Under the pieces are notes generated by a model. That model was not told where the DNA came from and did not search any database. It saw nothing but the letters and a program-made list of their open reading frames with translations. 64,000 nucleotides of DNA from Mizuhopecten yessoensis (taxonomy: Eukaryota): contig NW_018408761.1 of the NCBI RefSeq assembly GCF_002113885.1, forward strand, positions 997,580 through 1,061,579, in the 5' to 3' direction. Positions 19,601 through 60,843 of the stretch are shown here, piece by piece; position 1 is the first letter of the stretch, and each line of letters opens with the position of its first letter. Made by a program: the position numbers and the translations under genes.

Positions 19601-19608
19601 TGTTCCAG

Positions 19609-23840: not shown

Positions 23841-24158
23841 GTAGGTTACAAGGATAAGCAAGTTCAAGTAAGGTCATGATAGATTGAAAAGTTTGAAACC
23901 TAATTTTGATCAATTTAGAATGTCAGAACCAATGTCTTTAAATGATAAAAATTTTACATTGTACCTAAAGGTTAACATAAGGGGAAAACATTAAAACTGT
24001 TATCTGTTTTTAGGTGTATATTGGGTATGAAAAGTATTGTGATAAGGCAAACCATATTTAAATCTTTATTTAACTCATCTGTTTTAGCTGAATATAAGGT
24101 ATGAGATCAGGTATTGTGATAACAAACAATAGTATACAGGTGATTACTTAACCAACAG

Positions 24159-24299
24159 GTGTTCCTGTTAGCTGTTGAAAAGTTACCAGAGAAAGCCCTC
24201 ATCAATGTAGTCAGTTTTGGCACATCTTACTCGGAACTCTTTCCTTCACCTCAAAAGATGACAAAACAGACTTTACAGAAAGTTACAGAATTTGTACAG
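24159..24299 (+). CDS. PARP4: PARP4 exon 20, vWA domain (VFLLAVEKLPEKALINVVSFGTSYSELFPSPQKMTKQTLQKVTEFVQ).
   Basis: Aligns to human IALHALSLVGEKQKVNIIQFGTGYKELFSYPKHITSNT. Confidence 0.85.
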
Positions 24300-26700: not shown

Positions 26701-27354
26701 ATGATGTGTTAAAAGTGAATAAATAACTAGACTAACCATCTTTAGTTCAGATCAATAAAATATGTTCAAATCTTCCAACAAAGATTCACAAAGATACATA
26801 AGGTGTAGAGTAATAAAATGTTTTGAGGAAGACCCAAAAAAGTGTATAGCCTGTTTTAACAGCTAAATGAGTTTCTGATACTCCCTTTGATAAACATGTA
26901 TCGTATCCAAAAGGTTGAAAAATTAAAAAAAATAAAATTTAGGTGAGCTAGCTATCAAGGCCCCTGGGCAGTTTGTTGACTATGTTCTGCATTAAGGTTC
27001 ATGCAACTTTACATATTTATGTGCTTTTATCAGAAGAAAATGTCCCACAATATTTTTAAATCCTTGACTATGACCTTGACCTCTATGAAATTGCTTTGGG
27101 TCTTAAGTGTGGGAAGTGGACATCCCTGTCTAACAGACACATTTCTAGTTGAACCTGAAAAGAAGTTTCAGTCGTTCAATTGATGACAACCACGAATATG
27201 GGATTTACTCTGAAAAAGGCCTGTATTCTTTGTGTAAGATTAGAAAACAATGTTAGTATATAACAAAAATTCAAGTTATCTGACAGACACATGGTTTAAG
27301 CTGATTTAAGGCTAAGGGGCCAAGCAAATTATATCTCTACACTGAAAAACTTAT

Positions 27355-28459
27355 TTAAAAAACAAAAACGCTAAGATGCAATAAAACTGACCTTGAAATA
27401 GTTGATGGAGAACTTGGGTGTACTGGTGGTGTTAAGGGTTGTGTTACAGTACTCATCTGGTACATCCTGTAGTTGTAGTGTACATCTCCTAGTTGGACAC
27501 GGTTGCTGCCAGCCTGGTACACAAACTTAAACACTACCGCTGTGGTGGCAGCGGTGGGATGTGATAGGTCAGCACTGCATGTGGTGCCAATCTGTAGTGG
27601 TATCACATCAGTGGAATAGCATGTCGATGTGAGATTTGTCCACGAGATGATGTCTGTTGTTGTTTAAATCCAAACTGTTTGTTTGGCCTCTTGTCAAATT
27701 TTAAAATGGTAACACTAGTTTTTGACTGACTAGTAGTAAGTTTTGACAAATCAGCCAGTTTGAGCAACTCAGTTGTTTCCATTGTTGCAACGTCCTCTTG
27801 ATTGGGATAAAAGTTCATATAAATCCCTGCCTCACTTAGATGGCTTTCCATGATGTACTTCTCACGGTTGAATTTATCTGGACTCGAGAATTGTATAACA
27901 TTCTTTGAGTCAATAACACTAACACAAGAATAGAACCACTTAACATAATTGTTAGTCCAAGGATCTTGGTAAATAGCAGACATTTTGTGTCAGTTTTTCT
28001 CTTGTTTTTTGATAGTTTCGTGTTCTGCAAATCCTTTTTCGAAAATGTGACACTGATTATGGTCAAGACCTCTAACATCACTGCTATGGCCTTAACCATT
28101 TGTAAAATACTGACTGCCACCTTGCAACATCCTGCAATGTAGACATTAAGGAATATCAATGGAACATTTTCCCATACCAAAATCACATTTGCTCCGTCCA
28201 ATAGCCATGAGGGGAGGTGACTCTCATCCTTCACATCCATAATTATAACAATCACCTCTGTTATGTAAGTCATGGTTCCTATAACAGAGAAGGCAAGAAG
28301 TGATGACATCACACTACATGTACTAGGAAATGGTTCAAATACAAGGCCTTGTTCCAGGCCACTGACCTCATAATAAAACAGCCAATCACAAATTAGGTCA
28401 AAGGTCAACGCCAGAGATGAGATGATGAGAATCAAAATTTTGTTTGTGCGGGAATCCAT
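27355..28459 (-). pseudogene. Antisense nested gene or pseudogene inside the 7-kb PARP4 intron. The first ORF encodes a 4-TM membrane protein of unknown family, and two following ORFs run in shifted frames.
   Basis: Three consecutive minus-strand ORFs (28459-27836, 27983-27603, 27606-27355) of 207, 126 and 83 aa in three frames. Hydrophobic helices are clear in the first. The discontinuities could be 1-nt frameshifts or a ~71-nt intron (GTGAGA...caagAG). Confidence 0.4.
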
Positions 28460-31334
28460 CTCTGTAGGAAATTCTTGATTTGTTTTGTCTCAACTGGTTA
28501 GTAAATCAAGTACGCTAGTGATGTCTGAAGTATATGTTATAAAATGACACCTCTTTTAGAGCCTATCACTTTTGGCCTCAACCCTTTTCCTATAATAACA
28601 AATGATGATAAATAGAAATACTTGGCGAAATAAAATTAGAGGTTATATATTTTGACAAAAATGATGTTACAAAATTTACTTGGTAAAGTTACCATTCTTG
28701 ATGCAAATCTATGAAGAAAATTGTTATCATTAAACATGTTTACCTATCAGCATTTTCCTGTAATTGTGTTTTTCAGCAAGAATGTTGGAATTTGAAAAAA
28801 TTCAAAAATGATGATATTGACTCTTAAATCAAATCTGGAAGACAAACATATTTTTCATTACACATGAATCGCATGTTGCTTATCGCTTACCTTTTGTAAC
28901 TTTAATAACAAATTTACCTGTATGCACATAGTGGTTTTCCTCGTCTTGAATGTTTATAATCAAGCTGTTTATCCTAGAGGACTTTGAGAAGAAAATGAAG
29001 CCCGCAATATCTTTCTACAACCATGGCTACAAATCTGTCTATTACTGAGATGTAGTAGATGGATTCTCAACAGTTATCTATTATATGAAGATGAGACTAA
29101 GACTGGTTAGTCCTAAGTGTATTTATTCTGTGTTGGGTGGCCCATGTTAAAAGTGATTATTACAGACATGTATTGTAAGTTTGTCTTGTCTTCTTTAAAT
29201 CATTATTGATCCATATGCATATATTTTGGTAATATTTTCTTAATTTAAAAATGATTGTTTACCGTATTCAGACTTCATGTTTGAGTTATGTTAATTTGAC
29301 CCTCCTGTACGGAACTGCAACTGTAGTTCTGGTAATATAACACTTCAGTGATTATTTAATTAAATATATATAAAAACAGATATTTAGCTTTTGACCTTGT
29401 TAACATTATCAATTTAAATTATAGGTTGTTTTTATATAATATGCAGCAATTTTTATGATTATGTGTGACAATATCCTTAATTTGGTAAACTCGTGACGAT
29501 ACAGAAATTGGCTTGTTCTCAGGGTTCACTGTTGGTGCTGTATGGTCTTTTTGTGAACATTGTTTACATTTGTATGAATTAAACATACACATCTCTGTAA
29601 AATTGTTTAGAAGTTTAAAAGTCCACCAGTATTTGTCCGTCCTGTTAACATACACATTTTGTGCTTGTCAGTTAATGTTATTTGTGACAGCTTTTCAACT
29701 GGATTTCTAAACAGTGATATAAGATATCTCTGTAGCTGTGGCTAAATCATCGGAGCAATGTAACGCTCTTTTTTCATTAAAACTGTGTTTAGGAAATAAT
29801 TTTTATGAACAAATTGAGGCAGCATAAGAGGGTTTTACGGTAATTCAACGTAAAGTTTGAAAATATTTATTCAATAAAAGAAAGGTTTTTTCTTATCAAA
29901 AAATTGTATAATTTTGATTTGTTAAATATACTTAAGTATTTGATAAAATATTAAATACTACTTCACTGTCTAAACCAGGCGGTTCAAATATAGATTTTTA
30001 TTTTGTCTAAAATAAGAATTTGGTTCCAGCAATGAAAATCTATTATACCGTTAAACAATTAGACTATCTACCATCCAGAACATGCAGGAAATCGGCTATC
30101 ATTGCTTGGTCCTAGCTAGGAGTGTTTGTCCACACTTATAGTTTTTGGTGATTATTTCAGAATCCAGAAGTCCAAAACTTATGAAATTTTATATGGTGAT
30201 TTACTGTTATATGCACATATGCAATGGTAGTTATAAAAGTTCATAAGGTCAAAGTCAATATGCACATGCATGTGCAATGGGAGTTTAAAAAGAGCGTAAG
30301 GTCAGTCACTATTGCTAAAACTTCATTGCCTGTGTGACCTGTCAGTGTTGCATTTTTAATTGTTGGTTATGCTTCATTTATACATTGTAGCACCATATAA
30401 CCTTGAACCCGTAATCCAAGATTGCAACAAGTCAAGGTCAAGGTCACTGATACTAATAATAAAACAGGAGTGATTTACTGTTAAAACTACATTTTATGAC
30501 TTGGTCAGTGTTTGTTATGATTGCAAATGTTACTTGGCAGATATCCTGTACATCTATAATGCCATATTTCCTTAATCCTGAAATCTAAGATGGCCGACAT
30601 CTATTGCTTCTGACTGGCTGAGACATAACTTTTGTTTTGTTAATACAATTTTGTTCATATGTCATGGAAAATGATGCTTATAAGGGACAGTCCATATGGT
30701 GAATATGAACATATTGTCCGATACCCATGAAACAAGTTGGCTGACATAGTTTCTCATTGGCTGGGGTTTCAACTTTGAAGTCATATTACCTAGTCTGTAA
30801 CTTTTTATTACAATGTTCCAAATTCCTAGTGATCACTGCATAAGACTTTTTCTTCGCAATTTTGCATTCTAGATAAACTGTCAGGATGGGGCCATTATTT
30901 GCTGACCTATATCTGAGTTCTATGTAATTGGTTCCTGATTTAAATACCTACTAAATTGTGTTCACATTGCATAAATCGCATTGTATATACTGCATTACCC
31001 CAAAATAATTTTGATTTTTCCTTATACATAATGTAATTGCATTAAAAAAGCCAAACAACACTTTCAAGGGCATAGTTAATGAATATTTATTCAAAAATAA
31101 TTTTGCACATAACACAGCATTAATGATTATGCTGTAACTTAATTCATCATCAAGCATCCATTCAGAATTTAAAATTAAAAATACTGCGACAAACATTGTG
31201 GTATAATTCACACCTGGGAAAATCATTGCAACAGTAAATATCACATGAAAGAAATGGGATGTTTAAATTTTGAATTGATGTGATTATTGAATAACGTCAA
31301 ATATACTGATTATAATGTTATAATGATATTTCAG

Positions 31335-31522
31335 GCTGTGCAGCCACATTTGGGAGGAAGCAATGTTGATTACCCAGTAGAGTCCTTGTTCCTTCTCAGT
31401 CCAGCAGAGGGCAGCAGGAGTGTCTTCCTCATCTCAGATGGTTACCTTAGCAACAGTGATGTGTTGCTGTCAACAATCAGGAAAGGAAATGCTAAAAATA
31501 GAGTCTTCACCATTGGTGTTGG
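31335..31522 (+). CDS. PARP4: PARP4 exon 21, vWA domain (AVQPHLGGSNVDYPVESLFLLSPAEGSRSVFLISDGYLSNSDVLLSTIRKGNAKNRVFTIGVG).
   Basis: Aligns to human ...RGSRNILLVSDGHLQDESLTLQLVKRSRPHTRLFACGIG. It follows a 7-kb intron. Confidence 0.9.
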
Positions 31523-32388
31523 GTAAATATGGTATATGTAATGATTATTTTGTAAATTAAGATTTTATATGAAAAAGATAAGTTAAGTTTGATCGGTGCG
31601 TTTCATTTATGTTGAATTTCTACTAACCAGTTGGTATTATTCATGGAAGATTGAATTTTGCTATTTTCAAGGCCATTCAAAATTATGAAAATTTAACATC
31701 TAGCCAATATTTAATATTGCTGTCAATTATAACTGCTGTGACTATAAACAGGCCCACATAGAGTGTATAGACATGCTTATAATTACTGCTAAAAAAACAG
31801 GTGACCAAACTTCAACCAGCTGACCATGTTGTGGTGTTGTCGATGTCAGTTTGTTTTCAAACCTTTCCCAAGCAAGGTTGTTATTAAACAATTAGTAAAA
31901 ACAAATGTGATTTACACGCTTTTATTGAAAAGTAAATAAACCTCACCTGTAAATTGGACATGTCCATGACTTGAGGGTTGTGCGGTACTAATCTAACTTG
32001 CCTACAGTATTATAAATCAATTTTACCTAGTTTCAGAGAATTAGATGGGATTGCTATCTAAGTCTGTGCTAGTACCTATACCAAAGTAGCCAGTGACACT
32101 GAAGTTTTGACTTGCTGGTGTTTCAAAAATTTTCATCCCTGTGAAATAGTTCCAATCAAGATAGCTGCATAACATGAGCCCTTTAAAATTAGATTTGAAA
32201 TTAAACAACTATACAGTATGTAAATGGATGTGCAAGTGTTTCACAGGATAGAGGCAGGACGTATGATGTTGAGGTGTAGGCTATTGATTATCAATTGGAA
32301 TTGAAGCATGATGGGTTTTTTCAAAATGTATATAAAGGTATTTATGTGTAAAGTAAGTAATATTTTGAACTTTGATGTTTTTATGAAG

Positions 32389-32488
32389 ACAAAACGTGAA
32401 CCACCACCTGATGCGGAGCCTGGCGTCACGAGGAGGCGGTACCTATTACCATTACAACTATAAGACACGCTCCGTTTGGGAGGCCAGG
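32389..32488 (+). CDS. PARP4: PARP4 exon 22 (GQNVNHHLMRSLASRGGGTYYHYNYKTRSVWEAR).
   Basis: Aligns to human STANRHVLRILSQCGAGVFEYFNAKSKHSWRKQ. Acceptor ttttatgaag, donor GTGAGT. Confidence 0.85.
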
Positions 32489-33506
32489 GTGAGTGATCCA
32501 GTCTCATCACCTTGTTGTATGAGGCTTTGTTATTGTTGGTTGTAAGCAAGGGAGAAACTCTCAGCATCATCCTGAGAAAATAATCTGACCCAAGCATCTG
32601 CACTAACAAATCTCATATGAAGGATTGTAATTTTAACACAGTACTGGGTCTCTTCTAAAGTGGTGGACGTTTTTTTGTTTCAAACATTACTATACTGTAG
32701 ACCTTGGTTTGAACTCTCATACTAGTAGAATGACTCAGGCATTTATATTCACAAAGTTCACTACAAAGCAAACAGTCATTTAAGTCAGAATGAACAAAAA
32801 ATATAACACTGAGTTCCTTGTTAAATTTCTTTTTGCAAATAATGTTAACGAGCTTTCCTTTAGCATAGGAAAGGGGGTGAGTCTAAATTACAGGTAACAA
32901 ACTTAGTGGTTAAACTATATCATAGTGATCTCAATGTCTTTACTCTAATATACAATTTCGCAACTTTCGTGTTGAGCGATAAACTTCATGTTTTTCCTGC
33001 CATATAATTTCACTGAACCTATTGGAACAGAAGATAATGCCCAAATTCTTCAAGAATTTCTTGAAGTCTCTCAAAAAACAGGGACATAATTCAAATCAGA
33101 GCTTAGTCAATGATTAAAGCTTAATAGGGTAGAAACATGCAGACTAGATCACAAATTAAAAACAAATTTTGCTACTGAAATCATCACATTACATATTGGA
33201 ATACTGGTAGAAGTGGTTCAGTATGATTTACAGAAACAATTATACATATAGATTTGAAATATAGCATTACAAAGAGACAATCTACAGGAAATACGTGTTT
33301 AAAGCTGTCAATCAATATCCATTCCCTTAGTTAACTCATTCACCCCTGATTTCATAATGAATTATTCCAAACTTTGAATTGGAAGAGTTCAAATGTGTCT
33401 TCAGGGGTAATTGAGTTAAATATGATCTCTGAAAATTTCATCTTTAAGAGATATTTAAGAGGTAGTCTTGTACTTCTATGTCACTTTTATGTTTTAATAC
33501 TCTCCA

Positions 33507-33677
33507 GATGAACACTCAAGTTCAGAAGGCATGCCGTCCAGGTATTTCTGGTGTTAAAGTGGAGTGGCAGCAAAACATGGACACGACCAACAGACCTCTT
33601 CAGGCCCCTAATCACATCCCAAGTTTGTTTTCTGGGTCACGACAGGTCGTGTATGGCTTTGTACCTAACTGTACACA
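33507..33677 (+). CDS. PARP4: PARP4 exon 23 (MNTQVQKACRPGISGVKVEWQQNMDTTNRPLQAPNHIPSLFSGSRQVVYGFVPNCTQ).
   Basis: Aligns to human MTRLCSPSCHSVSVKWQQLNPDVPEALQAPAQVPSLFLNDRLLVYGFIPHCTQ. Donor CAG|GTGAGA. Confidence 0.9.
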
Positions 33678-35840
33678 GGTGAGAATTTTTATTACACTGA
33701 TGTGCTGGTAAGCAGGGGTTCAACTAGTTATATCTTTGTATGGCTTTGTACCTAACTGCACACAGGTGAGAATTTTTATTACACTGATGTGCTGGTAAGC
33801 AGGGGTTCAACTACTCCCCTCGGTAGGGACAAGTTATATCTTTGTATGGCTTTGTACCTAGCTGTACACAGGTGAGACTTTGTATTACACTGATGTACTG
33901 GTAAGCAGGGGTTCAACTACTCACCTCGTTAGGGACAAGTTATATCTTATCTTTGTATGGCTTTGTACCTAACTGTACACAGGCGAGAATTTTTATTACG
34001 AGGATGTGCTGGTAAGCAGGGGTTCAACTACTCGCCTCGTTAGGGACAAGTTATATCTTTGTATGGCTTTGTACCTGAATTTAGGCAGGGGAGGCTTTGT
34101 ATTACACTGATGTGCTGGTAAGCAGGGGCTCAACTACTCACCTCGGTAGGGACAAGTTATATCTTCATATGGCTTTGTACCTAACTGTACACAGGTGAGA
34201 ATTTTTATTACGAGGATGTGCTGGTAAGCAGGGTTTCAACTACTCACCTCGGTAGGGACAAGTTATATCTATGTATGGCTTTGTACCTAACTGTACACAG
34301 GTGAGACTTTTTATTACGAGGATGTGCTGGTAAGCAGGGGTTCAACTACTCCCCTCGGTAGGGACAAGTTATATCTTTGTATGGCTTTGTACCTGAATTT
34401 AGGCAGGGGAGGCTTTGTATTACACTGATGTGCTGGTAAGCAGGGGTTCAACTACTTATTTCTGGTGTTAAAGTGGAGTGGCAGCAAAACATGGACACGA
34501 CCAACAGACCTCTTCAGGCCCCAAATCACATCCCAAGTTTGTTTTCTGGGTCACGACAGGTCGTGTATGGCTTTGTACCTAACTGTACACAAGTGAGAAT
34601 TTTTATTACGAGGATGTGCTGGTAAGCAGGGTTTCAACTACTCACCTCGGTAGGGACAAGTTATATCTTCATATGGCTTTGTACCTAACTGTACACAGGT
34701 GAGAATTTTTATTACACTGATGTGCTGGTAAGCAGGGGTTCAACTACTCCCCTCGGTAGGGACAAGTTATATCTTTGTATGGCTTTGTGCCTAACTGTAC
34801 ACAGGTGAGACTTTGTATTACACTAATGTGCTGGTAAGCAGGGGTTCAACTACTCACATCGGTAGGGACAAGTTATATCACGCTTTATATCTAGATAAAA
34901 TAAAACGAGTTCATTACAAAGATGACCGGACAAAAAATGATGTATTCAATATCAATATCAATATTGATATATCTTTGTATGGCTTTGTACCTAACTGTAC
35001 ACAGGTAAGACTTTGTATTACACTGATGTACTGGTAAGCAGGGGTTCAACTACTTACCTCGTTAGGGACAAGTTATATCTTTGTATGGCTTTGTACCTAA
35101 CTGTGCACAGGTGAGACTTTGTATTACACTGATGTGCTGGTAAGCAGGGATTCAACTAGTTATATCTTTGTATGGCTTTGTACCTAACTGTACACTGGTG
35201 AGACTTTGTATTACGAGGATGTGCTGGTAAGCCGGGGTTCAACTACTCACCTCGGTAGGGACAAGTTATATCTATGTATGGCTTTGTACCTAACTGTACA
35301 CAGGTGACACTTTGTATTACGAGGATGTGCTGGTAAGCAGGGGTTCAACTACTCCCCTCGGTAGGGACAAGTTATATCTTTGTATGGCTTTGTACCTAAC
35401 TGCACACAGGTGAGAATTTTTATTACACTGATGTGCTGGTAAGCAGGGGTTCAACTAGTTATATCTTTGTATGGCTTTGTACCTAACTGCACACAGGTGA
35501 GAATTTTTATTACACTGATGTGCTGGTAAGCAGGGGTTCAACTAGTTATATCTTTGTATGGCTTTGTACCTAACTGCACACAGGTGAGAATTTTTATTAC
35601 ACTGATGTGCTGGTAAGCAGGGGTTCAACTAGTTATATCTTTGTATGGCTTTGTACCTAACTGTGCACAGGTGAGACTTTGTATTACACTGATGTGCTGG
35701 TAAGCAGGGGTTCAACTACTCACATCGGTAGGGACAAGTTATATCACGCTTTATATCTAGATAAAATAAAACGAGTTCATTACAAAGCTGACAGGACCAA
35801 AAATGATGTATTCAATATCAATATCAATATTGATTATATT
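33651..35840 (+). repeat. Tandem satellite (~108-bp unit, ~20 copies) derived from the 3' end of PARP4 exon 23 plus its GT donor and the start of the intron. It includes a 180-bp partial re-duplication of the exon at 34440-34620 and an 880-bp higher-order period.
   Basis: The unit ctttgtatggctttgtacctaactgtacacagGTGAGAatttttattacactgatgtgctggtaagcaggggttcaactactc.cctcggtagggacaagttatat repeats head-to-tail. Its first copy is the authentic exon end. Confidence 0.85.
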
Positions 35841-35924
35841 AGGAGACTGTAAGTGCAGAATTAAGTTCTTTGCAAAGGGGTTTTTAATGTGTGGTGGAAC
35901 TGGAATGGGTTGATTGTCGGTGGC

Positions 35925-36010
35925 CAGGTAGCTCAAATAGTAGTGTCTGTCTAGTGTTGTGAGGGTTCCAGGTTTGAACCCCAGTCTGGCCATTGCATTT
36001 CTGTTTTGCA
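35925..36010 (+). mobile_element. tRNA-derived SINE head fragment (ggccaggtagctcaaatagtagtg...ggttccaggtttgaaccccagtctggccattgcatttc).
   Basis: A-box/B-box-like GTAGCTCA and GGTTTGAACCCC. A homologous copy lies at 62706-62800. Confidence 0.45.
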
Positions 36011-36070
36011 ACAAATGTATTGTTGTGTCTGGTTGTAATTTGGTTAGTCTGTTTAATGAAGAAGGTAAAA

Positions 36071-37117
36071 AGGTTATATTAGCTCACCTATGAGCTTATG
36101 GTATGGCGTGTTGTCACTCGTCTGTCATCCGCCCGTCATTGAGTCTGTCGTTCATCGTCCCATCAACGTTTTCTTTGAATGGCTTGTTCTCAAGAACTGG
36201 AGGACCTAGGGCCATGATATTTGTTCAGTAGGTACCTGGGACAGAGTGCTGTAATATTTTCTCAAATAAATGACCTTAACTTACTTTCTATGTCACAGGG
36301 GTTAAATATATAAAAAAACCTTTAAACAACTTCTTCTGAATAACCAGGAGGCCCAGAGTAATAATACTAGGTCAGTATGTACCTGGCATGAAGTGCTATA
36401 AAGTGTCCTCAAACAAATGACCTTGACTTACTTTCAAGGTCACAGGGGTCAAATGTGTTTAAAAACCTTTAAAACATCTTCTTCTGAATTTCTGAATAAC
36501 CAGTAGGCTAAGAGTCATGATATTTGGTTTGGCCAGTAGGTTCATGGGACAGAGTGCTATAAGTTTTCCTCCAATAAATAACCTTGACCTACTTTCAAGG
36601 TCATGGGTTAAATATGTAAAAAATAAATTAAACATCTTCTTCTAAATAACCAGGAAGCCCAAAGTAATAATACTTGGCCAGTAGGTACCTGGCATGAAGT
36701 GCTATAAAGTTTCCTCAAATAAATGATCTTGACATACTTTCAATGTCACAGGGTTCAAAATTGTAAAAATCTTTAAACAACTTCTTCTGAATAGCTAAGA
36801 GGCTTAGAGCAATGATATTTGGCTAGTAGGTACCTGGGACAGAATGCTATCACGTTTCCTCATATAAATTACCTAGACCTCCTTTACAGTCACAGGGTTC
36901 AAATATGTGAATACTTCTTCTGCAATACCAGGATGCCCTCATTGATGATGTTTGACAAGTAGCATGCTGGGATAGAGTAGTATAAAGCTTCATTTAGTCT
37001 GGAGCATTCTTAAGCCAAGGAAACTCAATATATTAAAATATTTACAAAAGTACTTTTATTGAGAATATTTTCCCATGATTGCTCAAATAACCAGGTGAGT
37101 GATAAGAGGGCCTCTTG
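36071..37117 (+). mobile_element. HINE-like element, type A variant.
   Basis: Head AGCTCACCTATGAGCTTATGG, ~160-bp monomers and tail CCAGGTGAGTGATAAGAGGGCCTCTTG. Confidence 0.6.
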
Positions 37118-37340
37118 TAAAATGATTAAAGAGTTTCTCCATTTCAGAATGTTGTCAGTCTGTTAGAGATATATATAGATGGTAATATTTGCCTCGGACA
37201 AATAACAAACTTACAATGTCGGATCATACCAAGGTAAATATCTCTTTGTAACAATAACAAACTTACAATGTCGGATCATAACAAGGTAAATATCTCTTTG
37301 TAACAATAACAAATTACAGCAACCATCATTTATTTTACAG

Positions 37341-37421
37341 GCCTATTTGAAGGCAACTGTGGACAACATGGAGGTTTCTACGATGGTAGCAACAACAGAA
37401 CTCAACATTACACAAGGAGAG
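37341..37421 (+). CDS. PARP4: PARP4 exon 24 (AYLKATVDNMEVSTMVATTELNITQGE).
   Basis: Aligns to human ATLCALIQEKEFRTMVSTTELQKTTGT. Confidence 0.85.
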
Positions 37422-37803
37422 GTAATCAACATCAATTAGAAATGGAAAATGTATTCTATTATAATATCTCATTGCTTGTGAACAGAACTCCTTTTTCAAC
37501 ATCTCGTTCATTCAGATAAATTAAAGTCTATCTACCAGAAGCATAACATTTACATCAGACTTCCAAAGGTGAATTCAAAGCATTTCTCTTGGTTGTCATT
37601 TATATTTACTTGATATTTTGTACTTTACACCACAAGCTTTCTAGTTAATTAAATCAGATTATCAGGGCCCTAGCTGGTGATTTTTATGTGAGTAAATAAA
37701 TTCTACAACCTGTGTGAAAGTTTGATGGAATAGCAGCATTGAAAACAATGTTACCTGTTTTACATGTAGTTCTCTCCCCTGATTGGATATATTTTGTCCC
37801 CAG

Positions 37804-37884
37804 ATGCTGCATCAGCTGACGGCTCGTGCGGTGATCCGTGACTACGAGGATGGCATCCTTTGTGAGGACAAGATACAACAGCGG
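37804..37884 (+). CDS. PARP4: PARP4 exon 25 (MLHQLTARAVIRDYEDGILCEDKIQQR).
   Basis: Aligns to human MIHKLAARALIRDYEDGILHENE. Confidence 0.9.
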
Positions 37885-38569
37885 GTAGGTACTCGTGCAA
37901 ACATAATCTCTTATTTTGCAATTATTCAAATGCTATTGGTACAAATTCTCAAGAAACACAAAAAAAAAAATCATAACATTAAATTACTTTTGAATAATTG
38001 AAATAATACAGAGTTGGCTGTTGGCTGTCATTGACCGTGACAAAAGGTGGATTGTTGTTCTGATGGTACTTACCAAACATACAAAACTTGTTTGCAAAGC
38101 TGTCCTTTCTGGTTTGGTCCTCTATACATCAACTAGCCAAAGATATTGCAATGATTCCCATGAAGGTTTTGTTGTAATGATTGAATCATTGCAATTAACT
38201 TAGTCATGATGAATGGATACAACCAATATTTCAGATCTAGTATTATCAAAGTTTTGTTAGTGTATAACCTGTTTCTCCATGATCAAAGAATTTTAACGTG
38301 TTTGGTGCCAACTCATGCTGGATATCTTATAGACTCTATACTGCAGATAACTCTGACCAAGATCACTGTTTCCAAGTGCTTCCATTGTGCTAAACCCTTG
38401 GTTAACGGTTACTATCCCATTGTTCTATAGATTAACCTGAAGAGAAATTCCATCTAGCCGAATCAGTAACAAAGTTTCTAAATAATTCACCACTTTGACA
38501 TAGCCCTCCATGGAAGGACCTGACCCCTAAGACTTCAGTGACAACCATAATTATGCCTTTAAGAGTAAG

Positions 38570-39370
38570 GCTAAAGAGATGATAAAACATAGTATTGTGA
38601 TCACATTGTAAGCACCAGTGTATACGTAACTGAGATCCTTATTTCTCTTACCCTGGACAGGTGTATACACACTTTTCCTGTTGTGAGTTTATAATAGAAT
38701 CTTTCACCCCAAAGGGTGAGATGAGGGAATCTCAACCCGAGGGGGAAGATTCTTAAGTTGACAGCAAAGCCTCAGGTTCGGCAACTTAGGAGAATCTCAA
38801 CCATTCTTTCCCTGAGGGTTGAGATTCTCCTATCTCACCCCCAGGGGGATGAGAGATTATTTTTCTCTTACCCTGTTCTTGCATTGTGTATAATATACAT
38901 ATTGTAATGTTACAGGCTAAATTCAGGGTTGACGTGACGTTGATGGATTGTTTATGTGACGTCATACCATTGTTATGAATAGGGGAATCCCCCCGTTTCA
39001 ACCCTAGGGTGTGACATTGATATATCACACCGGTAAAAGTGTGGATACACCTGTCCAGGGTAAGAGAAATCCTTGTCTTTCCTAGGGTTGAGACGGGGGG
39101 ATTCCCCTATTCATAACAACTGTATGACGTTACGTCAACATTACATCAGCATCATGTCAACAACGTATTATATGATACACAATGAGTGAACAGGGTATTA
39201 AGAGAAAAATAATTATTGACCCGCTTGTGGTTGAGATTGGGGAAATATTCTTAAGTTGCCTTACACTCGGCAAAACCTCATGTTTGTCAACTTAAGAATC
39301 GTCCCCATCATGTTGAGATTCCGCTATCTCACCCGCAAGGGGTGAGAGATTCTATTATTCCAAGTTCACC
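38570..39370. mobile_element. Large foldback-type element. Palindrome arms are ~400 bp, centered near 39030, with nested smaller hairpins.
   Basis: cctggacaggtgtatacacactttt (38652) pairs with aaaagtgtggatacacctgtccagg (39040). gggaatccccccgtttcaaccctaggg pairs with cctagggttgagacggggggattccc. Internal palindromes at 38720-38870 and 39230-39360. Confidence 0.6.
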
Positions 39371-39537
39371 CGCTAGGTCTCTAATCCAGATTTACAAAAT
39401 TCAAATCCATTCTAAACTTTCTCCTAATTATCAGAGTCAACAAGTGATTAGATGCTTCTCTACTTTGACAATCAGAAAGCCAGTACTAGCTGAATAAGTT
39501 CTCAGAATTGATTTCAGTATGAACTGTGCTTCTTCAG

Positions 39538-39639
39538 GTGCTGAAACAGGAGAGAAAGAACACCATTATACAGCTGAGCACGGAGTACTCCATTGTGACC
39601 CCCTACACCAGCTTTGTGGCCATTGAGGAAAGAGATCAG
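39538..39639 (+). CDS. PARP4: PARP4 exon 26 (VLKQERKNTIIQLSTEYSIVTPYTSFVAIEERDQ).
   Basis: Aligns to human TLKSLIIKLSKENSLITQFTSFVAVEKRDE. Confidence 0.9.
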
Positions 39640-40474
39640 GTATTTACAGTGTTAATAACTTGTATCTCTTGTACAGATCTGGGAAATATTAAGGGATTCC
39701 TTTACAACCTTTGGTTGGTTGGTTCACATGTTTATCAGTCAGTGTGGGGGAGGGGGGTTAAGTGGCCTTTACAAACCCTCCTAGTCATGTGTGTCTATGC
39801 ATGATCCCCACGGCACTCCTATCCCTAAGCAATCCTGTGAATGCTTCTTATATATATATTTATATACCAGATGCAAATTAAAGTCAACCTGTCTTTGTCA
39901 GCACCTCTGTTAATAAGCAGACACTTCTCTAATCCTGCCACTGTTAAGGAATATAGTACTGTATAACATGAAATGTTCGATGTGTATAAACATTCGAGGT
40001 TTTCGTGGTTTCTATTGAATCACGAAAATAAATTCAAACAAATTTGAATGATATAAGTGTCTACTGTTTGTTATTATAGGATATCCACAAAAGTTTGTAC
40101 CATGAAACGATCTAAATGGCTTCAATCCACTAAGGAAAATAGCCACGAACATTTTGTGTTATACAGTATTATAGTTATAGTCAAACAATTAATTAGAACT
40201 TGTATAATAGCCACTTGTATTCAGCAGCCACTTTTGACGATCCCTAAATCAGGTTTTACCATACAATACCTTGTCGATCTTGAATAACTAGGCCCACTGA
40301 GGACGACTCATCTTACATATGAAACAACATCTGTTGATATCTGAAATAACACACAAAATTGTCCAACTGTAATGACTTTTTTATGCTGCTTGACATTGTT
40401 TTATCATATTATTGAACTTTTTATCAAACAGCACATGAAAACATAAAATTGTTTGTGTTTCTTACCATTGTCAG

Positions 40475-40582
40475 GATGAGCAGATAACAGATGGACCATC
40501 TATTGATGACCTGGTTGCTGAGGAATCTGTAGACATTTTGGATTATGTAGGCTGGCAGAACCCTGATTTCTTTGATGAAAAG
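40475..40582 (+). CDS. PARP4: PARP4 exon 27 (DEQITDGPSIDDLVAEESVDILDYVGWQNPDFFDEK), the last exon with clear colinearity to human before the low-complexity part.
   Basis: Aligns to human ESPFPDIPKVSELIAKEDVDFLPYMSWQGEPQE. Confidence 0.75.
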
Positions 40583-41235
40583 GTAAGTTCACCATAACTC
40601 TCTCTTTTTGTTAGATTCCTGATGATACCTGATTTAGTTTGTTTTAAATTTTCAAAATTCTTCATTAATAGGTTTGAATATTTTGATATGGTGAAATGTC
40701 AGGATATGTTAGTTAAAAGAAATTCTGTAGAATTTTCACTTCAAAATTGTAGAAATAATTGGGTCCCAGTGGAGGATTTAAAGTAAATCTTGTAAATTCT
40801 ATTCCTTTAGTACCAATGTAAGGATATTCTTTTTATTAATGGAGGGTGTGGACCCACTTAGGGCTGAGAGACAGGGCTCAGTTAGGGAAGTAATGTCAAA
40901 TAAAAACTTGAAAATCCTATTCCTTTGATACTGGTTAAGTTCTTTTTACCAAAGTTATTCTGTGCTCCTTAAGGGGACTCAATAATGTATTAATGGAGGG
41001 TGTCGACCCTCTGAGGGTGGAGTGGCAGGGCTCAATTCGAAAAATAAAATGTTATTCTTCCTTTTTCAGTACTGGTTAAGGGATTTTAACCAAATTTGGT
41101 CTTGGGGCTTAGGGGAGGGAATTGATTGTTGCATAAACATTTAAGTGTGTAGCACAACAAAATTATGAATAAAAGTGAAGTACAATAAGATCAACATAGC
41201 ATTTAATTTTGTTTGCTTGTTTGATTCTGATCTAG

Positions 41236-41382
41236 GAGCCAGAAGAAATTGTAGAGGAACTGTTAAGAAAAGCTTTGATTGCAGAGAGCTTCTCACAACA
41301 GGAGGCAAATAGAACCTATGCCTCTATCTTAGATTACAAATCCTGTCTTCAAAACGATGCCAACAACGAACTCAAAGAAAAG
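41236..41382 (+). CDS. PARP4: Probable PARP4 exon 28 (EPEEIVEELLRKALIAESFSQQEANRTYASILDYKSCLQNDANNELKEK).
   Basis: The frame opens exactly at the acceptor tctgatctag, with an in-frame TAG immediately upstream. 49 codons in phase 0, donor GTAACT. No human similarity. Confidence 0.5.
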
Positions 41383-41440
41383 GTAACTGCACTGAATTTG
41401 ATGAAAAACAAGTCAGCCATACTTTATAATTTGTCATTGC

Positions 41441-41840
41441 TTTTTATGCACCTACCATAAAATGGGGGGGGGGGGGGGCATATATAGTGTTGCCCATGTC
41501 TGTCCTGTCCCGTTCCGGTTCAATGTAAACACCCGTCCCGTCCCATCCCATCCCGTCACTCTTGTTGGCCCTTGCCACAACTCATACTGATCACTCTTGT
41601 TGGCCCTTGCCACAACTCATACTGATCACTCTAGATCTTGTTGGCCCTTGTTACAACTCATACTGATCATTCTTGTTGGCCCTTGTTACAACTCATACTG
41701 ATCACTCTTGTTGGCCCGGATGTTAGCGTGCAGGGAGTCTTACTGTTGGAGGAAACTAGTGTTCCCGGAGAAAACCCACATGATCGGGTTGGTGACCCAT
41801 ACCTTTTCACGTCTGATTGGGGAATCGAACCCTGGCCGCC
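41441..41840 (+). mobile_element. Repeat family G. Starts ttttatgcacctaccataaaatgg, then (G)18, then catatatagtgttgcccatgtctgtcc, a 35-bp x4.5 internal tandem repeat, and a tRNA T-arm-like motif at the end.
   Basis: The head is shared with the element at 57419. G18 homopolymer at 41461-41478. Confidence 0.45.
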
Positions 41841-41999
41841 TTAGTGAAATTGAACATTGATTAACGTGTAAGTTCATAGACTAAATTGAATAATGTGTCA
41901 AGACAGTCCTTGTAAAGCTTATATACATATATACTTAAATCAAGTGTTGAACAAGCTGGGAAGTATATATTTTTACCTTGTATGTTTTTGTTTTCAAAG

Positions 42000-42087
42000 G
42001 TTATGGAAGCAGCTGAAAGATTTTTCTCCTGTTCTAAAGATGACATTAGCCAAAATATGTTGGCAGAGTTTCGGAAAAGTTTTCCTT
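42000..42087 (+). CDS. Exon encoding VMEAAERFFSCSKDDISQNMLAEFRKSFP, which joins in frame to the ubiquitin-like exon. Either an alternative PARP4 exon or the first coding exon of a nested UBL gene (ATG at 42003).
   Basis: Acceptor ttttcaaag, donor GTAAGT. Phase 0 in, phase 1 out, exactly matching the UBL frame of the next exon. Confidence 0.45.
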
Positions 42088-42549
42088 GTAAGTATTAAAA
42101 TATGTTACTTAATATGTAAATGAGTGATAAGCTAGACAGACTATCCTGTATGTGCAGATTTGGCAGAGAAGTTAACACTCATGTCTCCCACAAACGCTGG
42201 AATGCAATCCCTTGAGCTATTTTAGCATGGATTTTCATTCCTCAGAGCTTTTGCAGCATAGATTTTTCAGAGAACATGTTTTTCTCCAATAATCCAGACG
42301 GAGAATTAAATTGTCTGCAGTGGGTGCTATAGTGACTGGGATGTAACAATCAAGTGAGATGTCACTGTGGTGAAAGATTTAATTAATACACCAGCCCACT
42401 GCACGACACAAACAAATGGAGATTTAGACGGAGCCTTTCCTTCTAATGTCTGTAGTTACTGTGTACCAGATGTTGATAATACTCTTTTCATATCAAAATA
42501 TATTTTGAAAAAAGAATTGATGAAAGTTTTACATTTATTCCCATTGCAG

Positions 42550-42726
42550 TCCCAATCGAGATACACACCCTGACTGGTAGGACTATCCCCGTGAGTGTGT
42601 CCGAGGGCGACACCGTGTCTGACTTGAAGAATAAGATCCATCAGATAGATGGACTTGACCCAGAGCAGCAGAGATTGATTGTTGGTGGGAAACCGCTGAA
42701 GGATCTCGCTGTTCTCTCCGATCTTG
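42550..42726 (+). CDS. Ubiquitin-like domain exon, first part (FPIEIHTLTGRTIPVSVSEGDTVSDLKNKIHQIDGLDPEQQRLIVGGKPLKDLAVLSDL).
   Basis: About 40% identical to ubiquitin residues 1-58 (TLTGKTI, DQQRLIFAGKQL, TLSDY). Acceptor ccattgcag, donor G|GTAATT. Confidence 0.7.
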
Positions 42727-46463: not shown

Positions 46464-46593
46464 ACCATAAGAATACATCATATTTGATTGAGAGGATGTG
46501 CTTTTAGAGGTGGCAGCTGTTTTGATACAACGTTATGTGAGGGCATGAGTTAGCCTCTATATAACAATTGTATTTTTTTTCTATATTCTTCAG

Positions 46594-46700
46594 ATCTGGA
46601 GTATAATGCTGTCTTCCTGTTACCAAGGCTGCGAGGGGGACTTAGTTTTGGTCTCAAGGAAGATTTGAAAACAAAGCGTATTCTCGCGGAAAACGTATGA
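46594..46700 (+). CDS. Ubiquitin-like domain terminal exon (DLEYNAVFLLPRLRGG + LSFGLKEDLKTKRILAENV, stop TGA at 46698-46700).
   Basis: Completes the UBL with the RLRGG C-terminal motif. The phase-1 junction with 42726 restores the frame. Acceptor ctatattcttcag. Confidence 0.65.
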
Positions 46701-51232: not shown

Positions 51233-51459
51233 GACATGAATGAGTATGATCAGATATATGGTAAGAAGGTGCATACGGAAAAGGACAAAAGCTGTACTGA
51301 TGATGGAAAAAACCCGGTGAAGATGTCCTCATTGTTTTCTCCTTTTAGGCAATCCTTACGAATGATGGCTCCAAGGAAACAGTTAGCAACCAAAGCTGCC
51401 AGAAAATCTGCACCTGCAAACTTTGATGAAAATGAGGAGGAGCAGAATGAGGATGACAG

Positions 51460-51497
<38 letters not shown>

Positions 51498-54337
51498 TTG
51501 AAAAGATGGGCAACTTTAGCTGCATGGCACTTCCAGATGACAACGTGGTTGATGATGCTACGAACAAGAAACAGGAAGTGTCAGATGTAGGAAGAATACC
51601 AGACTCTCCACTCTCAGCAACACAGTTTGGCCCCTTGTCTCCAAAATGTTCAGATTCATTTGGTACAAACTTTGAAAAATTTGAAATCTCTCAGTATTTA
51701 GATGAAGACATGGAGATTGATTTAGATACTGAAGACCCGGCATTCCTCATTCTCACTTCTGAAATATCTGACATATTTTCACCTTCAATGGCAGGCCATT
51801 CTCAGGACACTCCAGCCTATATATCAACCTCCCCATCTTACAAACCAACTTCCCCATCCTATTCGCCCACTTCCCCATCTTACAAACCAACTTCCCCATC
51901 CTATTCGCCCACCTCCCCATCTTACAAACCAACTTCCCCATCCTATTCGCCCACCTCCCCATCTTACAAACCAACTTCTCTATCCTATTCGCCCACTTCC
52001 CCATCTTACAAACCAACTTCTCCATCCTATTCACCAAATAGAAGAGCACGAAGAGCCAAATCAACATTTGAGGATTTCCAACATGAATCAACATCAAACA
52101 ATAAAGATTTTGTGGTTTCAGGTTCAAGACAAGCAAAGTCAAGCAGCACATCTAGTGAACATGGTTTGTGTGGAGCTCCAGTGCAAGCAGAACCAGGCAG
52201 TAAACCAAGTCAGAGCTTCAATTTTAATGCTTCGCTACAAACAGCATCAAGCAATGAACCAACACAAAGTTTGGGATTGGGGGCTCCAAACCTAGCAGAA
52301 CTAGGCGGTAAACCAAGTCAGGGGTTCAATTTTAGTGCTCCTCTAGTAACAGCATCAAGAAATATATCAACACAAAGTTTGGGATTGGGGGCTCCAAACC
52401 TAGCAGAACCAAACACAATGCCAAGTCAAGGGTTTTCCTTTGGAGCTCGAATGCAAACAACTCAAAGCGCTTCACCAGCCGAAGGTTTCAGTTTTTCTCA
52501 GAATCAAACATTGCAGAGCATTACCAGTAAAGGAAGCCATTGTTTTGGATTTGGGACTTCAAAACCAGCCGGAGCAAGCAGAACGACAAGTCAAGGGTTT
52601 TCCTTTGGCGCTCAAATGCAGTCCCAACGATGCAATATACCAACCCAAGATTTCTATTTTGGAGCTTCAAATTCAGCAGGTTTTGGAGATGACGGTGACA
52701 GACGTGGTGGTTATGGAGGTGTCAGTGTTAGACCTGGTGGTTATGGAGATGACAGTGACAGACGTGGTGGTTATGGAGGTGTCAGTGTTAGACGTGGTGG
52801 TTATGGAGGTGTCAGTGAGGGACTTGGTGGTTATGGAGGTGTCAGTGTTAGACGTGGTAGTTATGGAGGTGACAGTGTTAGATGTGGTGGTTATGGAGGT
52901 GTCAGTGAGGAATGTGGTGGTTATGGAGGTGTCAGTGAGGGACTTGGTAGTTATGGAGGTGTCAGTGAGGGACTTGGTAGTTATGGAGATGACGGTGTCG
53001 GACGTGGTGGTTATGGAGATGACAGTGTCGGACGTGGTGGTTATGGAGGTGACAGTGTCGGAGGTGATGGTTATGGAGGTGTCAGTGAGGGATTTGGTGG
53101 TTATGGAGGTGACAGTGAGGGATGTGGTGGTTATGGAGGTGTCAGTGTTAGATGTGGTGGTTATGGAGGTGTCAGTGAGGGACGTGGTGGTTATGGAGGT
53201 GACAGTGAGGGACGTGGTGGTCCTAGACTTGCTGGTTCTAAAGATGGACATGTTTCTTACATAGAAACAGCACCAACATTTACATATTTGAAGGATCTTG
53301 ACTTGAATTTAGCAAAACATGATCCAAAAACTAGGATATTGAAGGAAAATGACAGAAGACCTTCCAGTGTAACAGAGAAGGATCTGCCTTCACAGCCTTT
53401 CAGACATGTACAGGATAAAATGTTCCCACCAGACTTTGATGAATCCTTATTACCTAAACAAAAGAGAAAAATTCCTCCTGTTGGAAGAGGAGGTTCTGGA
53501 TTCACTGCAAGGAATGACCAGGGTCCTGCTGAAACAACCAAAGAACAAGGTCGAAGGTCATTAAAGTCAGTCAGAGGCGCAATGCATGGTGCAAGATCAA
53601 GAGACAGAAATAGGGAACAATCTCGTGAGCTTATTGTGCTGGATAAGAGTAAAAAACTAAGTTTGAGTCATGACAGAAGGCGGAGGAGTTTGAGTAGAAG
53701 TTTGAGTCGAGACAGAAGACAGAGGAGTTTGAGTAGAAGTTTGAGTCGAGACAGAAGGCGGAGGAGTTTGAGTAGAAGTTTGAGTCGAGACAGAAGGCGG
53801 AGGAGTTTGAGTAGAAGTTTGAGTCGAGGAAGGGGGAGAAGAGACTTGGAAAGATGTTACAGTAGAGATAGAGCAAGAAAGGAAAATAAAAAAATGCACA
53901 GATCAAGTGGAAATAATGATACAAACAGTAGGAATAAAAATAGGGACAAAGCAGGAAGCAAAATAGACAGAGATCCTGCAAGAGAAAGTAAGAAACAGAT
54001 AAAGCATAAAAATGAAAAGAAGGAGCAAACAAAGGCTGATGAACAGGTTGTCAAAACATTTGGGAAAAAAGGGAAGAAAAGGGAACAGACAAGGGATGAT
54101 GAAGAGATTGTCAAAACTGGAGGGAAGAACCTGTCAGGAAAGTTGGAATATGATGATCATGAGAAAATGGACTTTACAGTGGACATGGCACCAACTTTGA
54201 AAGTCTGGGATGTAACATCAGAGACAGGCAAGGACATTGTGAAATTCATAAAGTATATTTCTGATTCAATCTTCTTTTATATACAAAAGATCTGTAATTT
54301 TCTACAAATTCAAGTGAGCTTAAGTGAACTTTCTTGA
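51233..54337 (+). CDS. 3.1-kb open reading frame (giant exon or intronless gene) encoding a modular low-complexity protein. Its modules are a histone H3(15-31) mimic, a poly-Asp tract, RNAPII-CTD-like heptads, FG repeats, GGYGG repeats, an RS domain and a K/E tail. It is probably the large low-complexity exon of the PARP4 ortholog.
   Basis: Uninterrupted 1033-codon ORF. The acceptor tttcag at 51227-51232 lies immediately after an in-frame TGA at 51206. Phase 0 is compatible with PARP4 exons 27 or 28. Human PARP4 also has a large S/P-rich low-complexity region at this position. Confidence 0.7.
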
Positions 54338-57304: not shown

Positions 57305-57392
57305 TTGTGAGGATGTCGGGATCTGGAAAGGCATTGTACGAAAGATTTCAAAAGTCCCTAACACTGAGGATCTCCTGCAACACATTAATACG
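57305..57392 (+). CDS. PARP4: PARP4 C-terminal exon (ICEDVGIWKGIVRKISKVPNTEDLLQHINT).
   Basis: Together with the next exon, aligns to human VPWTELLSLQTEDGFWKLTPEL. Acceptor cacttttcag, donor GTACAG. Confidence 0.7.
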
Positions 57393-58913: not shown

Positions 58914-59013
58914 GGACAATATTGGGAACTGACTCCAGAGCTGTGTCAAACCCTCGGTGTTTTCTACATCAAGGTCACCAACCAGCTGAAGCTACATGGC
59001 CTGTACTCCTTAG
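58914..59013 (+). CDS. PARP4: PARP4 C-terminal exon (GQYWELTPELCQTLGVFYIKVTNQLKLHGLYSL).
   Basis: WELTPEL aligns to WKLTPEL of the human vault-interaction region. Acceptor gtgtttcacag, donor G|GTATGT. Confidence 0.8.
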
Positions 59014-60475: not shown

Positions 60476-60843
60476 GAAGCCATGCTGCATCCTTAGGAGA
60501 AAACATGGTAGCAACATATCTTGTGGTCCTCAAGATAATACAGATCATTTACCAGCAGATGAACAGAAAACCACTGAAATTGGACCTGGCCGGATTTGCG
60601 TCTTTGGACTTGATGAACTGGACATTGAATTGTAACAATACCCTGTCCATCAAGTTAGATACTACGCGGTCAACAGGATGCTCAGCGGTGTTGTATCTCC
60701 ACAATGAAATATCAGGTGTTCACAAATGGTTGACCGAGAAGCGTGGTGAACATGAACGACTCTGTAGGCAGTTAGAACTAGGACATTCCTTACAAACTTT
60801 CACTTGGAACCTTTTCTGTGCTCTCAACGAAAAGCCAGTCTGA
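60476..60843 (+). CDS. PARP4: PARP4 terminal exon (GSHAASLGENMVATYLVVLKIIQ...KWLTEKRGEHERLCRQLELGHS...NEKPV*), stop at 60841-60843.
   Basis: Aligns to the human C-terminus ATMLVLQFIRT...EWVRRTEGQYPSICPRLELGND. The phase-1 junction with the previous exon is consistent. Confidence 0.8.

Follow-up and report, generated by a model that had tools for sequence, protein, structure and literature searches.

Integrated decoys and tripwires are known from defence proteins, among them the integrated domains of plant NLRs and the protease-site mimics of NLRP1 and CARD8. In vertebrate PARP4, the largest exon (exon 30 of human) lies between the vWA and MVP-binding domains and codes for ca. 360 disordered residues that show strong recurrent positive selection (Daugherty et al. 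2014, PMC4038475). Its authors noted no homology to other proteins, and proposed that through this exon pathogen factors are recognised and then either ADP-ribosylated or sequestered in the vault (PMC4038475). The C-terminal domain of human PARP4 docks on the inner face of this particle (PMC12280208). A second group of described systems are the H3-tail mimics found in non-histone proteins, i.e., influenza NS1 (ARSK), G9a (ARKT), JARID2 (K116), PALI1 and EZHIP (K27M-like) (PMC6028506, PMC8319299, PMC6513997). Known histone mimicry is restricted to a few viral and chromatin proteins and always involves very short motifs. Here, we describe a stretch of 64,000 nucleotides of Mizuhopecten yessoensis (contig NW_018408761.1, positions 997,580 to 1,061,579; referred to below as the window) in which the giant exon of a PARP4-like gene contains an exact copy of part of the histone H3 tail.

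The copy and its immediate surroundings are as follows.

51347..51367, forward strand: weak upstream extension, RQSLRMM, resembling H3 residues 8-14 (RKSTGGK); tblastn reaches H3 residue 8, but the extension is weak alone
51368..51418, forward strand: exact copy of H3.1/H3.2 residues 15-31, based on the translation, tblastn with H3, a chance expectation of 3e-15 and the Pecten module
51419..51496, forward strand: acidic stretch of 26 residues, including a (GAT)14 run, that adjoins the H3 copy directly

The translation of the central segment is identical at 17/17 positions to residues 15-31 of H3.1/H3.2, a range that takes in the K27/S28 box. For this assignment, we take the canonical H3 to have A31 in H3.1/H3.2 (the replication-dependent type) and S31 in H3.3. 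With the base composition of the window and all six frames, chance alone predicts 1.5e-18 exact matches to this 17-mer and 3.2e-15 to any H3 17-mer. The H3-tail copy is real, as the original prediction, made from the letters alone, had claimed together with the acidic stretch that follows and the improbability of a chance match; all three points were confirmed. Read on the reverse strand, the same segment has a stop codon. With full-length H3 as the query, tblastn aligned only residues 8-31 and detected no other H3-like sequence in the window; in the upstream extension, R8 and S10 are retained, while K9 is replaced by Q and K14 by M. The G+C content at third codon positions is 0.24 in the module, similar to that of the surrounding exon (0.29). 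We are not aware of a longer exact H3-tail copy in any non-histone protein.

Compared with histone H3, residues 15-31 are identical, but the copy has the codon usage of its host exon, is internal in the protein instead of N-terminal, and lacks residues 1-7 and 32-135. Neither the tblastn alignment, which stops at residue 31, nor Pfam, which gave no match for the exon, indicated a histone fold, and the flanks are of low complexity (the acidic run and tandem repeats) without any domain match. Because the histone-fold domain (ca. H3 45-135) is missing, the protein does not belong to the histone H3 family. What was found instead corresponds to a short linear H3-tail mimic, i.e., an identity beyond chance in a non-histone protein that is conserved in orthologues (Pecten, with H3-like strings in Mytilus, Batillaria, Littorina and Nucella). 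As in the known histone mimics, a non-histone stretch, which here is probably disordered, repeats an H3-tail sequence that histone-directed proteins could engage. The differences are that those mimics cover 4-8 residues around one lysine, compared to 17/17 here (perhaps 24 with mismatches), and that this one has a PARP4 orthologue as its host and copies of other proteins beside it.

The host gene could be followed on both sides of the copy.

4792..42722, forward strand: upstream PARP4-like exons, coding for BRCT, PARP catalytic (13.8-14.6 kb), VIT, vWA and the first part of a ubiquitin-like domain (42549-42722), identified by Pfam and homology
46581..46697, forward strand: exon finishing the ubiquitin-like domain (D-LEYNAVFLLPRLRGG-LSFGLKEDLKTKRILAEN), with a good acceptor and a phase matching the 42722 donor
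51233..54227, forward strand: giant low-complexity exon of ca. 3.0 kb between the ubiquitin-like domain and the MVP-interaction exons, based on a 1,042-codon open frame and collinearity with Pecten
57305..57392, forward strand: exon CEDVGIWKGIVRKISKVPNTEDLLQHINT, the beginning of the C-terminal MVP-interaction region, 74% identical to XP_033748226.1 (E 9e-10), with splice sites read
58914..59013, forward strand: MVP-interaction-domain exon GQYWELTPELCQTLGVFYIKVTNQLKLHGLYSL, matched by fish PARP4 in tblastn (E 0.003), 80% identical to Pecten, with splice sites
60476..60840, forward strand: last coding exon, with the remainder of the MVP-interaction domain (...LCRQLELGHSLQTFTWNLFCALNEKPV, stop) and a phase matching the 59013 donor

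The upstream exons gave Pfam matches to PARP, VWA_3 and ubiquitin, are collinear with Mytilus, Pinctada and Ruditapes proteins and have the order expected of PARP4 (BRCT, PARP catalytic, VIT, vWA); their concatenated conserved open reading frames (ORFs) are 50-56% identical to mollusc PARP4-like proteins, with E values down to 1e-170. The exon at 46581-46697 has a homologue in Pecten, the exon ...NNPIFLVMRLRGGV (E 1.6e-4). At the other side, the exon at 58914-59013 was the top match of a purpose-built hidden Markov model of vertebrate PARP4 C-termini, whose matches are weak but collinear, and the three exons at 57305-57392, 58914-59013 and 60476-60840 splice in phase with one another. Their amino-acid identity to Pecten maximus is 58-80%, and phmmer (1.84e9 representatives) retrieved the P. 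maximus protein XP_033748226.1 (E 4e-33), which carries PF26156 PARP4_MVP-ID (weak); this match settled the question of the MVP-interaction domain. The C-terminal domain of PARP4 is therefore also represented, by the exons at 57.3, 58.9 and 60.5 kb. Given the PARP4 exons upstream and the MVP-interaction exons downstream on the same strand, the large ORF is most probably an internal exon region of a PARP4-like gene, and the PARP-associated host that had been proposed for the H3 copy holds on both flanks.

Some features of the ubiquitin-like domain (42549-42722 plus 46581-46697) are worth recording. It retains the C-terminal RLRGG, and the residue that follows is Pro in Nucella, Littorina, Gigantopelta and Mytilus (RLRGGP) and Leu in the window. 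Read-through of the 46697 donor leads to a stop nine codons on (…ENGMI, stop), by which a short tail-less isoform is possible.

The 3′ end of the giant exon, at 54227, is a GC-type donor (ACAG/GCAAGG, 54224-54233, forward strand), whose Pecten counterpart is a normal GT donor (ACAG/GTAAAG), the exon end used by RefSeq XP_033748226.1. The exon is located between the PARP and MVP-interaction exons on the same strand, and it ends at the splice by which this Pecten model continues into the MVP-interaction domain; another Pecten model, of 2,351 residues, terminates inside the giant exon. At the 5′ end, there are two candidate acceptors, 51233 (phase 0) and the stronger 51349 (polypyrimidine 0.9, two bases required). 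A small intron at 51261-51348 was rejected, since the removal of 88 nt would change the reading frame and lead to a stop. Judging by its low-complexity sequence, the giant exon of this PARP4-like gene is probably disordered. From 5′ to 3′, the modules are H3-like, acidic, non-repeat (with a 14-residue motif), C-terminal domain (CTD) heptads, FG, RGG, non-repeat, RS and K/E-rich, of which the repeats are the following.

51825..52041, forward strand: ca. 10 RNA polymerase II CTD-like heptads, alternating YSPTSPS and YKPTSPS, in a 42-bp unit repeated 4.9 times (TRF)
52186..52672, forward strand: FG-nucleoporin-like repeats (GFNF, GFSFG, FGFG, FYFG) in a 108-bp repeat (TRF and sequence), a module also present in Pecten
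52679..53221, forward strand: 30-bp unit repeated 18 times (TRF), RGG/GY repeats of the type GGYGG(V/D)S(V/E)(R/G), FET-like (RGG domain of TAF15/FUS)
53659..53828, forward strand: SR-protein-like RS repeats, 13-residue unit repeated 4.4 times (TRF), followed by K/E-rich sequence to ca. 54140

The heptads are 91% identical to (YSPTSPS)8 and also occur in Pecten. They are tandem but lie outside RPB1, so that they qualify only as look-alikes of the Pol II CTD; a database search with the whole exon returned nothing but RPB1 CTDs, because the heptads swamped the candidate list. The RGG repeats, which have a Pecten equivalent too, matched the RGG region of TAF15 in blastp (E 5e-29), and the Pecten counterpart of the RS repeats is found under the RefSeq label “serine/arginine-rich splicing factor 4-like”. 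The FG repeats presumably resemble those of FxFG nucleoporins. Taken together, the modules that can be recognised by sequence form a chain in which each link resembles an invariant host protein: H3, Pol II CTD, FG, FET-type RGG and SR-type RS. In the non-repeat parts, 25 residues (53465-53539, forward strand) resemble the N-terminus of PRP6 (PDB 3jcr_G), with an E value of 0.62 that is not significant alone; other than this, the PDB sequence searches of these parts yielded one meaningless match. Just downstream of the PARP4 model of Mytilus coruscus, there is a gene with a weak match to the U6-snRNA-binding region of PRP8.

Judged by its position, the mollusc giant exon is the counterpart of the disordered exon of vertebrate PARP4. 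Both are the largest of their gene, disordered (probably so in the mollusc), fast diverging and placed between the vWA and MVP-interaction domains. In contrast, the content of the mollusc exon is recognisable as host look-alikes, and it is preceded by a ubiquitin-like domain. No sequence homology was found between the mollusc and vertebrate exons.

The locus of Pecten maximus (L006) has the same order as the window, with the ubiquitin-like domain followed by the giant exon and the MVP-interaction domain. Its giant exon is made up of a Q-rich part, an acidic one, SFIPRKQIATKAARRSSVPA, a second acidic part and IRSSTKMGAPRK joined to SGKGLGKGGAKR, after which come E-rich sequence, DEDIEIDLD, CTD heptads, FG, RGG, RS and K-rich modules. 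In blastp, the giant exon of the window and that of Pecten align collinearly (E 4e-75 and 1e-45), with an overall identity of just 32%. Within this collinear exon, Pecten has the H3 module PRKQIATKAARRSSVPA, with a core identical at 30/33 nt (CCAAGGAAACAGTTAGCAACCAAAGCTGCCAGA in the window versus CCAAGAAAACAGATTGCAACCAAAGCTGCCAGA). Identical codons are used for 11 of the 13 conserved residues of the module, compared to 39/69 and 23/33 in MVP-interaction exons. Since Pecten shares the core at the DNA and codon level, the H3 copy was inherited, and is neither a chimera nor an independent capture. When the whole exon was scanned in 13-mers, the H3 module was the best-conserved non-repeat island (11/13), and only DEDMEIDLD came near. 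This argument from a close orthologue is drawn from one species, P. maximus, and within that scope the H3 copy is under apparent constraint. The extension RQSLRMM is collinear with Pecten IRSSTKMGAPRK, and the single H3 module of the window equals the union of two partial Pecten copies, which points to an H3(8-31)-like module in the ancestor and its duplication in Pecten. K27 is replaced by R in the Pecten module. The Pecten exon also contains a copy of the H4 tail, KSGKGLGKGGAKR (L006 7912-7950), in which 12/13 residues are those of H4 5-17, directly after the H3(8-18)-like IRSSTKMGAPRK; the H4 copy is not in the window.

H3-like strings were also found in the PARP4 tails of other molluscs. 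In Mytilus edulis, exon-like ORFs downstream of the ubiquitin-like domain, whose last strand is continuous with the tail in Mytilus, code for RKKQSARKSTGGKCPRIQVTGK (similar to H3 2-29, E 8.5e-5) and for …PRKSAPIVED… with an acidic stretch. A single 819-codon ORF of Batillaria includes ARTYQTARRS and SRTRQTARRSTGGRAPR, the H3-like string having every K replaced by R, and the next called gene bears PF26156. The RefSeq protein of Littorina has RTNQTARMSTGGKAPARMQMA as its C-terminal end, with K9M. In Nucella, a spliceable exon coding for ASRELIFTKAAHKSAP and ASRELIFTKAAHKSAPLVDLEAEL has PF26156 downstream, and this string is probably part of the PARP4 tail. The original prediction had suggested looking for the insertion in other mollusc genomes, and these strings, together with the module at the orthologous position in Pecten, bear it out. 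As in the window, an acidic stretch comes after the H3-like module in Pecten, Mytilus and Nucella. In a Smith-Waterman comparison of 120 PARP4 homologues with H3 1-40, Batillaria (73) and Littorina (69) stood out, while the remaining 118 scored <=38 and shuffled tails <=43. No genuine H3 genes were found in the mollusc PARP4 loci compared. A database search with a query made from the Mytilus tail ORFs was empty, and in the Pinctada and Mytilus coruscus loci (L002 and L003) the tail was not reached within 10 kb, which contained repeats and transposon-like sequence. The lysines are not uniformly kept (K27R in Pecten, all K to R in Batillaria, K9M in Littorina), which argues against one lysine-directed enzyme as the conserved partner. 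Incidentally, the giant exons of Batillaria and Nucella (L004 49400-50400 and L005 94200-94900) have long poly-proline repeats, e.g., AGGAPPPPPP repeated at least seven times; they resemble formin FH1 or WASP/VASP and may be a further look-alike module of gastropods.

The post-vWA tails of invertebrate PARP4-like proteins were compared by blastp with a small panel of conserved proteins. Ubiquitin-like domains appeared in nine gastropods. Oysters, a pearl oyster, one hemichordate and one brittle star have residues 2-65 of actin in their tails, with an exact core of 20 residues (E 1e-15 to 1e-22). The tails of amphioxus, hemichordates and one gastropod contain 14-3-3, represented by its C-terminal half. 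In addition, the C-terminal peptide of the ribosomal P-stalk was detected in four molluscs and a piece of the VAMP SNARE motif in one oyster (the proteins with actin, 14-3-3, VAMP and P-stalk look-alikes are P0136, P0137, P0143, P0144, P0152, P0160, P0129 and P0131). Calmodulin was found in one pearl-oyster (Pinctada) model that is possibly a gene-model fusion. The tails of teleost PARP4 (look-alikes in P0215, P0179, P0193, P0194, P0189, P0171 and P0225) contain near-exact P-stalk C-terminal peptides, e.g., ESEESDDDVGFGLYD and DESVDDMGFGLFD, and short CTD-like heptads. Because fish PARP4 tails hold P-stalk copies and heptads, the look-alike theme is not limited to invertebrates.

Our tentative reading, at just under an even chance, is that the H3 module serves proteins directed at the H3 tail as a short linear bait or pseudosubstrate. 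Proteins that normally target the tail around residues 15-31 would bind or act on the module; candidates are proteases, modifying enzymes and readers, either encoded by pathogens or by the host. A pathogen origin seems most plausible for these partners, because of the signature of selection in vertebrates and the kinds of proteins that are copied elsewhere. Once captured, they would be brought to PARP4 and either ADP-ribosylated or sequestered; alternatively, PARP4 could be set free by cleavage of the tether. Viewed in its entirety, the exon would act as a changing set of decoys, copying proteins that are too constrained to escape attack by evolving. The clipping sites mapped on H3 are at residues 18-32, almost all of them inside the copied segment 15-31 or next to it, including those of MMP-9 (K18/Q19), the FMDV 3C protease (L20/A21), cathepsin L (A21/T22 to K27/S28) and other proteases (K23/A24, R26/K27, A31/T32) (PMC5988574). 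Ricin and Shiga toxin, in turn, dock on the P-stalk tail (PMC9823235, PMC5086656). Compared with integrated decoys and tripwires, the likeness lies in the concept, by which the host target of a pathogen would be copied into a defence protein, in a region of fast turnover. The differences are that PARP4 is not an established sensor and that its modules are neither folded domains nor sites of viral polyproteins but linear motifs or repeats. The copies of host proteins are there, and the standing of PARP4 as a defence protein comes from evolutionary inference only.

Several points weigh against a bait. The lineages retain different parts of the H3 tail, with lysines often replaced, and no single reader or enzyme is implied by the parts retained. 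All modules of the Mizuhopecten exon are nuclear, and a role with transport receptors or in condensates fits them equally well. Some pieces of the collage come from automatic gene models and are possibly fusions (the Pinctada calmodulin, a scorpion zinc finger). At the 5′ junction, the 46697 donor leaves one base, while acceptor 51233 requires none and 51349 two; on these phases, the junction must depend on an additional small exon, on a different donor or on alternative splicing, and if the donor is read through the protein ends soon after the ubiquitin-like domain. Finally, an immune role of PARP4, or of the vault itself, is only hypothetical.

An improbable alternative is that the module regulates endogenous chromatin enzymes, as a substrate or allosteric mimic of PRC2, CARM1, p300 or Aurora B that, in the manner of JARID2 (K116), PALI1 or EZHIP, either tunes these enzymes or receives their marks as a means of regulating PARP4. 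In the window, the K27/S28 box (ARKSAP) is complete, a partial RKSAP or HKSAP box is retained in Mytilus and Nucella, and cellular mimics of H3K27 are established (PMC8319299, PMC6513997). However, K27 is R in Pecten, the closest orthologue, all the lysines are R in Batillaria, and a dedicated PRC2 regulator would have no need of CTD, FG, RGG, RS and (in Pecten) H4 look-alikes; moreover, vertebrate PARP4 is anchored in a cytoplasmic particle (PMC12280208). The specific mimicry of substrates of these four kinds of enzymes, comparable to JARID2 or PALI, that the original prediction had favoured finds no support in this context of unrelated look-alikes and incompletely conserved lysines. A general role as bait or decoy fits better than a dedicated chromatin-regulatory mimic, because the H3 copy is one module among unrelated look-alikes in an exon that is under positive selection in vertebrates.

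Equally improbable, in our estimate, is a scaffold built from nuclear disordered regions, whose modules would be ligands of transport receptors or stickers for condensates and would localise PARP4 or the vault at nuclear pores or in nuclear bodies, or form a selective phase in the vault lumen. Two points speak for it: each module in the window and in Pecten copies a nuclear low-complexity region, and distinct karyopherins recognise histone tails, RS and RGG regions as import signals, with FG repeats being bound by all karyopherins. On the other hand, the tails of other lineages hold cytoplasmic pieces (actin, P-stalk tail, VAMP, 14-3-3), and the exact identity over 17 residues exceeds what stickiness or a basic import signal would need.

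Still less probable is that the H3-like ARKS serves as an automodification site of PARP4, in the way that S10 and S28 of H3 serve for serine ADP-ribosylation. KS motifs are preferred sites of this modification, and the K27-S28 pair is in cis to a PARP catalytic domain. However, serine ADP-ribosylation depends on HPF1 with PARP1/2, not PARP4, and for the same reason the argument that PARPs ADP-ribosylate histone tails, advanced when the copy was noticed, lends no support here. Pecten has RS in place of KS, and neither the 17-residue identity nor the neighbouring modules would be explained by an acceptor site.

We give a similarly low probability to a neutral passenger, i.e., an H3 coding fragment captured by a fast-evolving repetitive exon and kept by chance without any function. 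This would suit an exon that is highly repetitive, with quick turnover and only 32% identity to Pecten, and lineages that hold differing sub-segments of H3. Against it, the H3 module is the best-conserved non-repeat island in the comparison with Pecten, H3-like strings recur in the same gene region of bivalves and gastropods, and the 17/17 identity persists although 30-43% of the conserved MVP-interaction residues have changed codon. An artefact of assembly or annotation that joined a fragment of a histone H3 gene, the refutation foreseen in the original prediction, is effectively refuted and has a negligible probability, with no point found in its favour: the flanks are not H3-like, the window has neither an H3 gene nor any N, the segment is in frame within the 1,042-codon (3.1-kb) ORF, and the same module, largely with the same codons, is present in the independent Pecten assembly.

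Returning to the bait or decoy, its extension to all animals is more doubtful. The hypervariable PARP4 exon could be an evolving decoy library of invariant host proteins needed by pathogens or toxins, whose members would be H3/H4 tails, Pol II CTD, FG, RGG, RS, the P-stalk tail, the actin N-terminus/D-loop, 14-3-3, the VAMP SNARE motif and ubiquitin; we consider it rather unlikely that this holds across the animals. If it did, the library would be tethered inside the vault next to an ADP-ribosyltransferase, making the vault an effector trap or sensor and providing a testable function for an organelle whose role has stayed open since 1986. The H3 copy is located in a PARP4 region that evolutionary analysis had flagged as a likely host-pathogen interface, without its content being recognised there, and reading the exon as a string of copies offers a mechanistic hypothesis for its fast evolution and for the contribution of PARP4 to the vault. 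In the library searched, we found no literature linking PARP4 with histone mimicry, mimics, decoys or the P-stalk motif. Owing to the exactness of the H3 copy, the antibodies, enzymes and peptide assays already available for H3 could be applied to it at once.

Elsewhere in the window, upstream of the PARP4-like gene, there is an intronless ORF of 459 codons (1227-2606, reverse strand), E/K-rich and coiled-coil-like, with an SD-repeat near its start, for which no Pfam match or gene-index record was found. The introns have an abundant repeat family on both strands (14700-16000, 18900-19200, 42900-43050 and 44800-50400), with recurring ORF fragments GPNRGNIANSLKSFF… and KHPWVKGNQFCINGGSGP and tandem units of ca. 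321 bp at 14.9-15.9 kb, which is probably a transposon- or satellite-like element. At 33840-35750 (forward strand), the intron that follows the …VVYGFVPNCTQ exon contains the 3′ end of this exon in ca. 15 partial copies arranged in tandem. A comparable tandem array at an exon junction is present in the gene of Mytilus coruscus (MLHQLTARAVIRDYEDGVFSSNKFI, repeated >20 times, L003 37.9-40.4 kb), where it has been incorporated in the protein model P0130.

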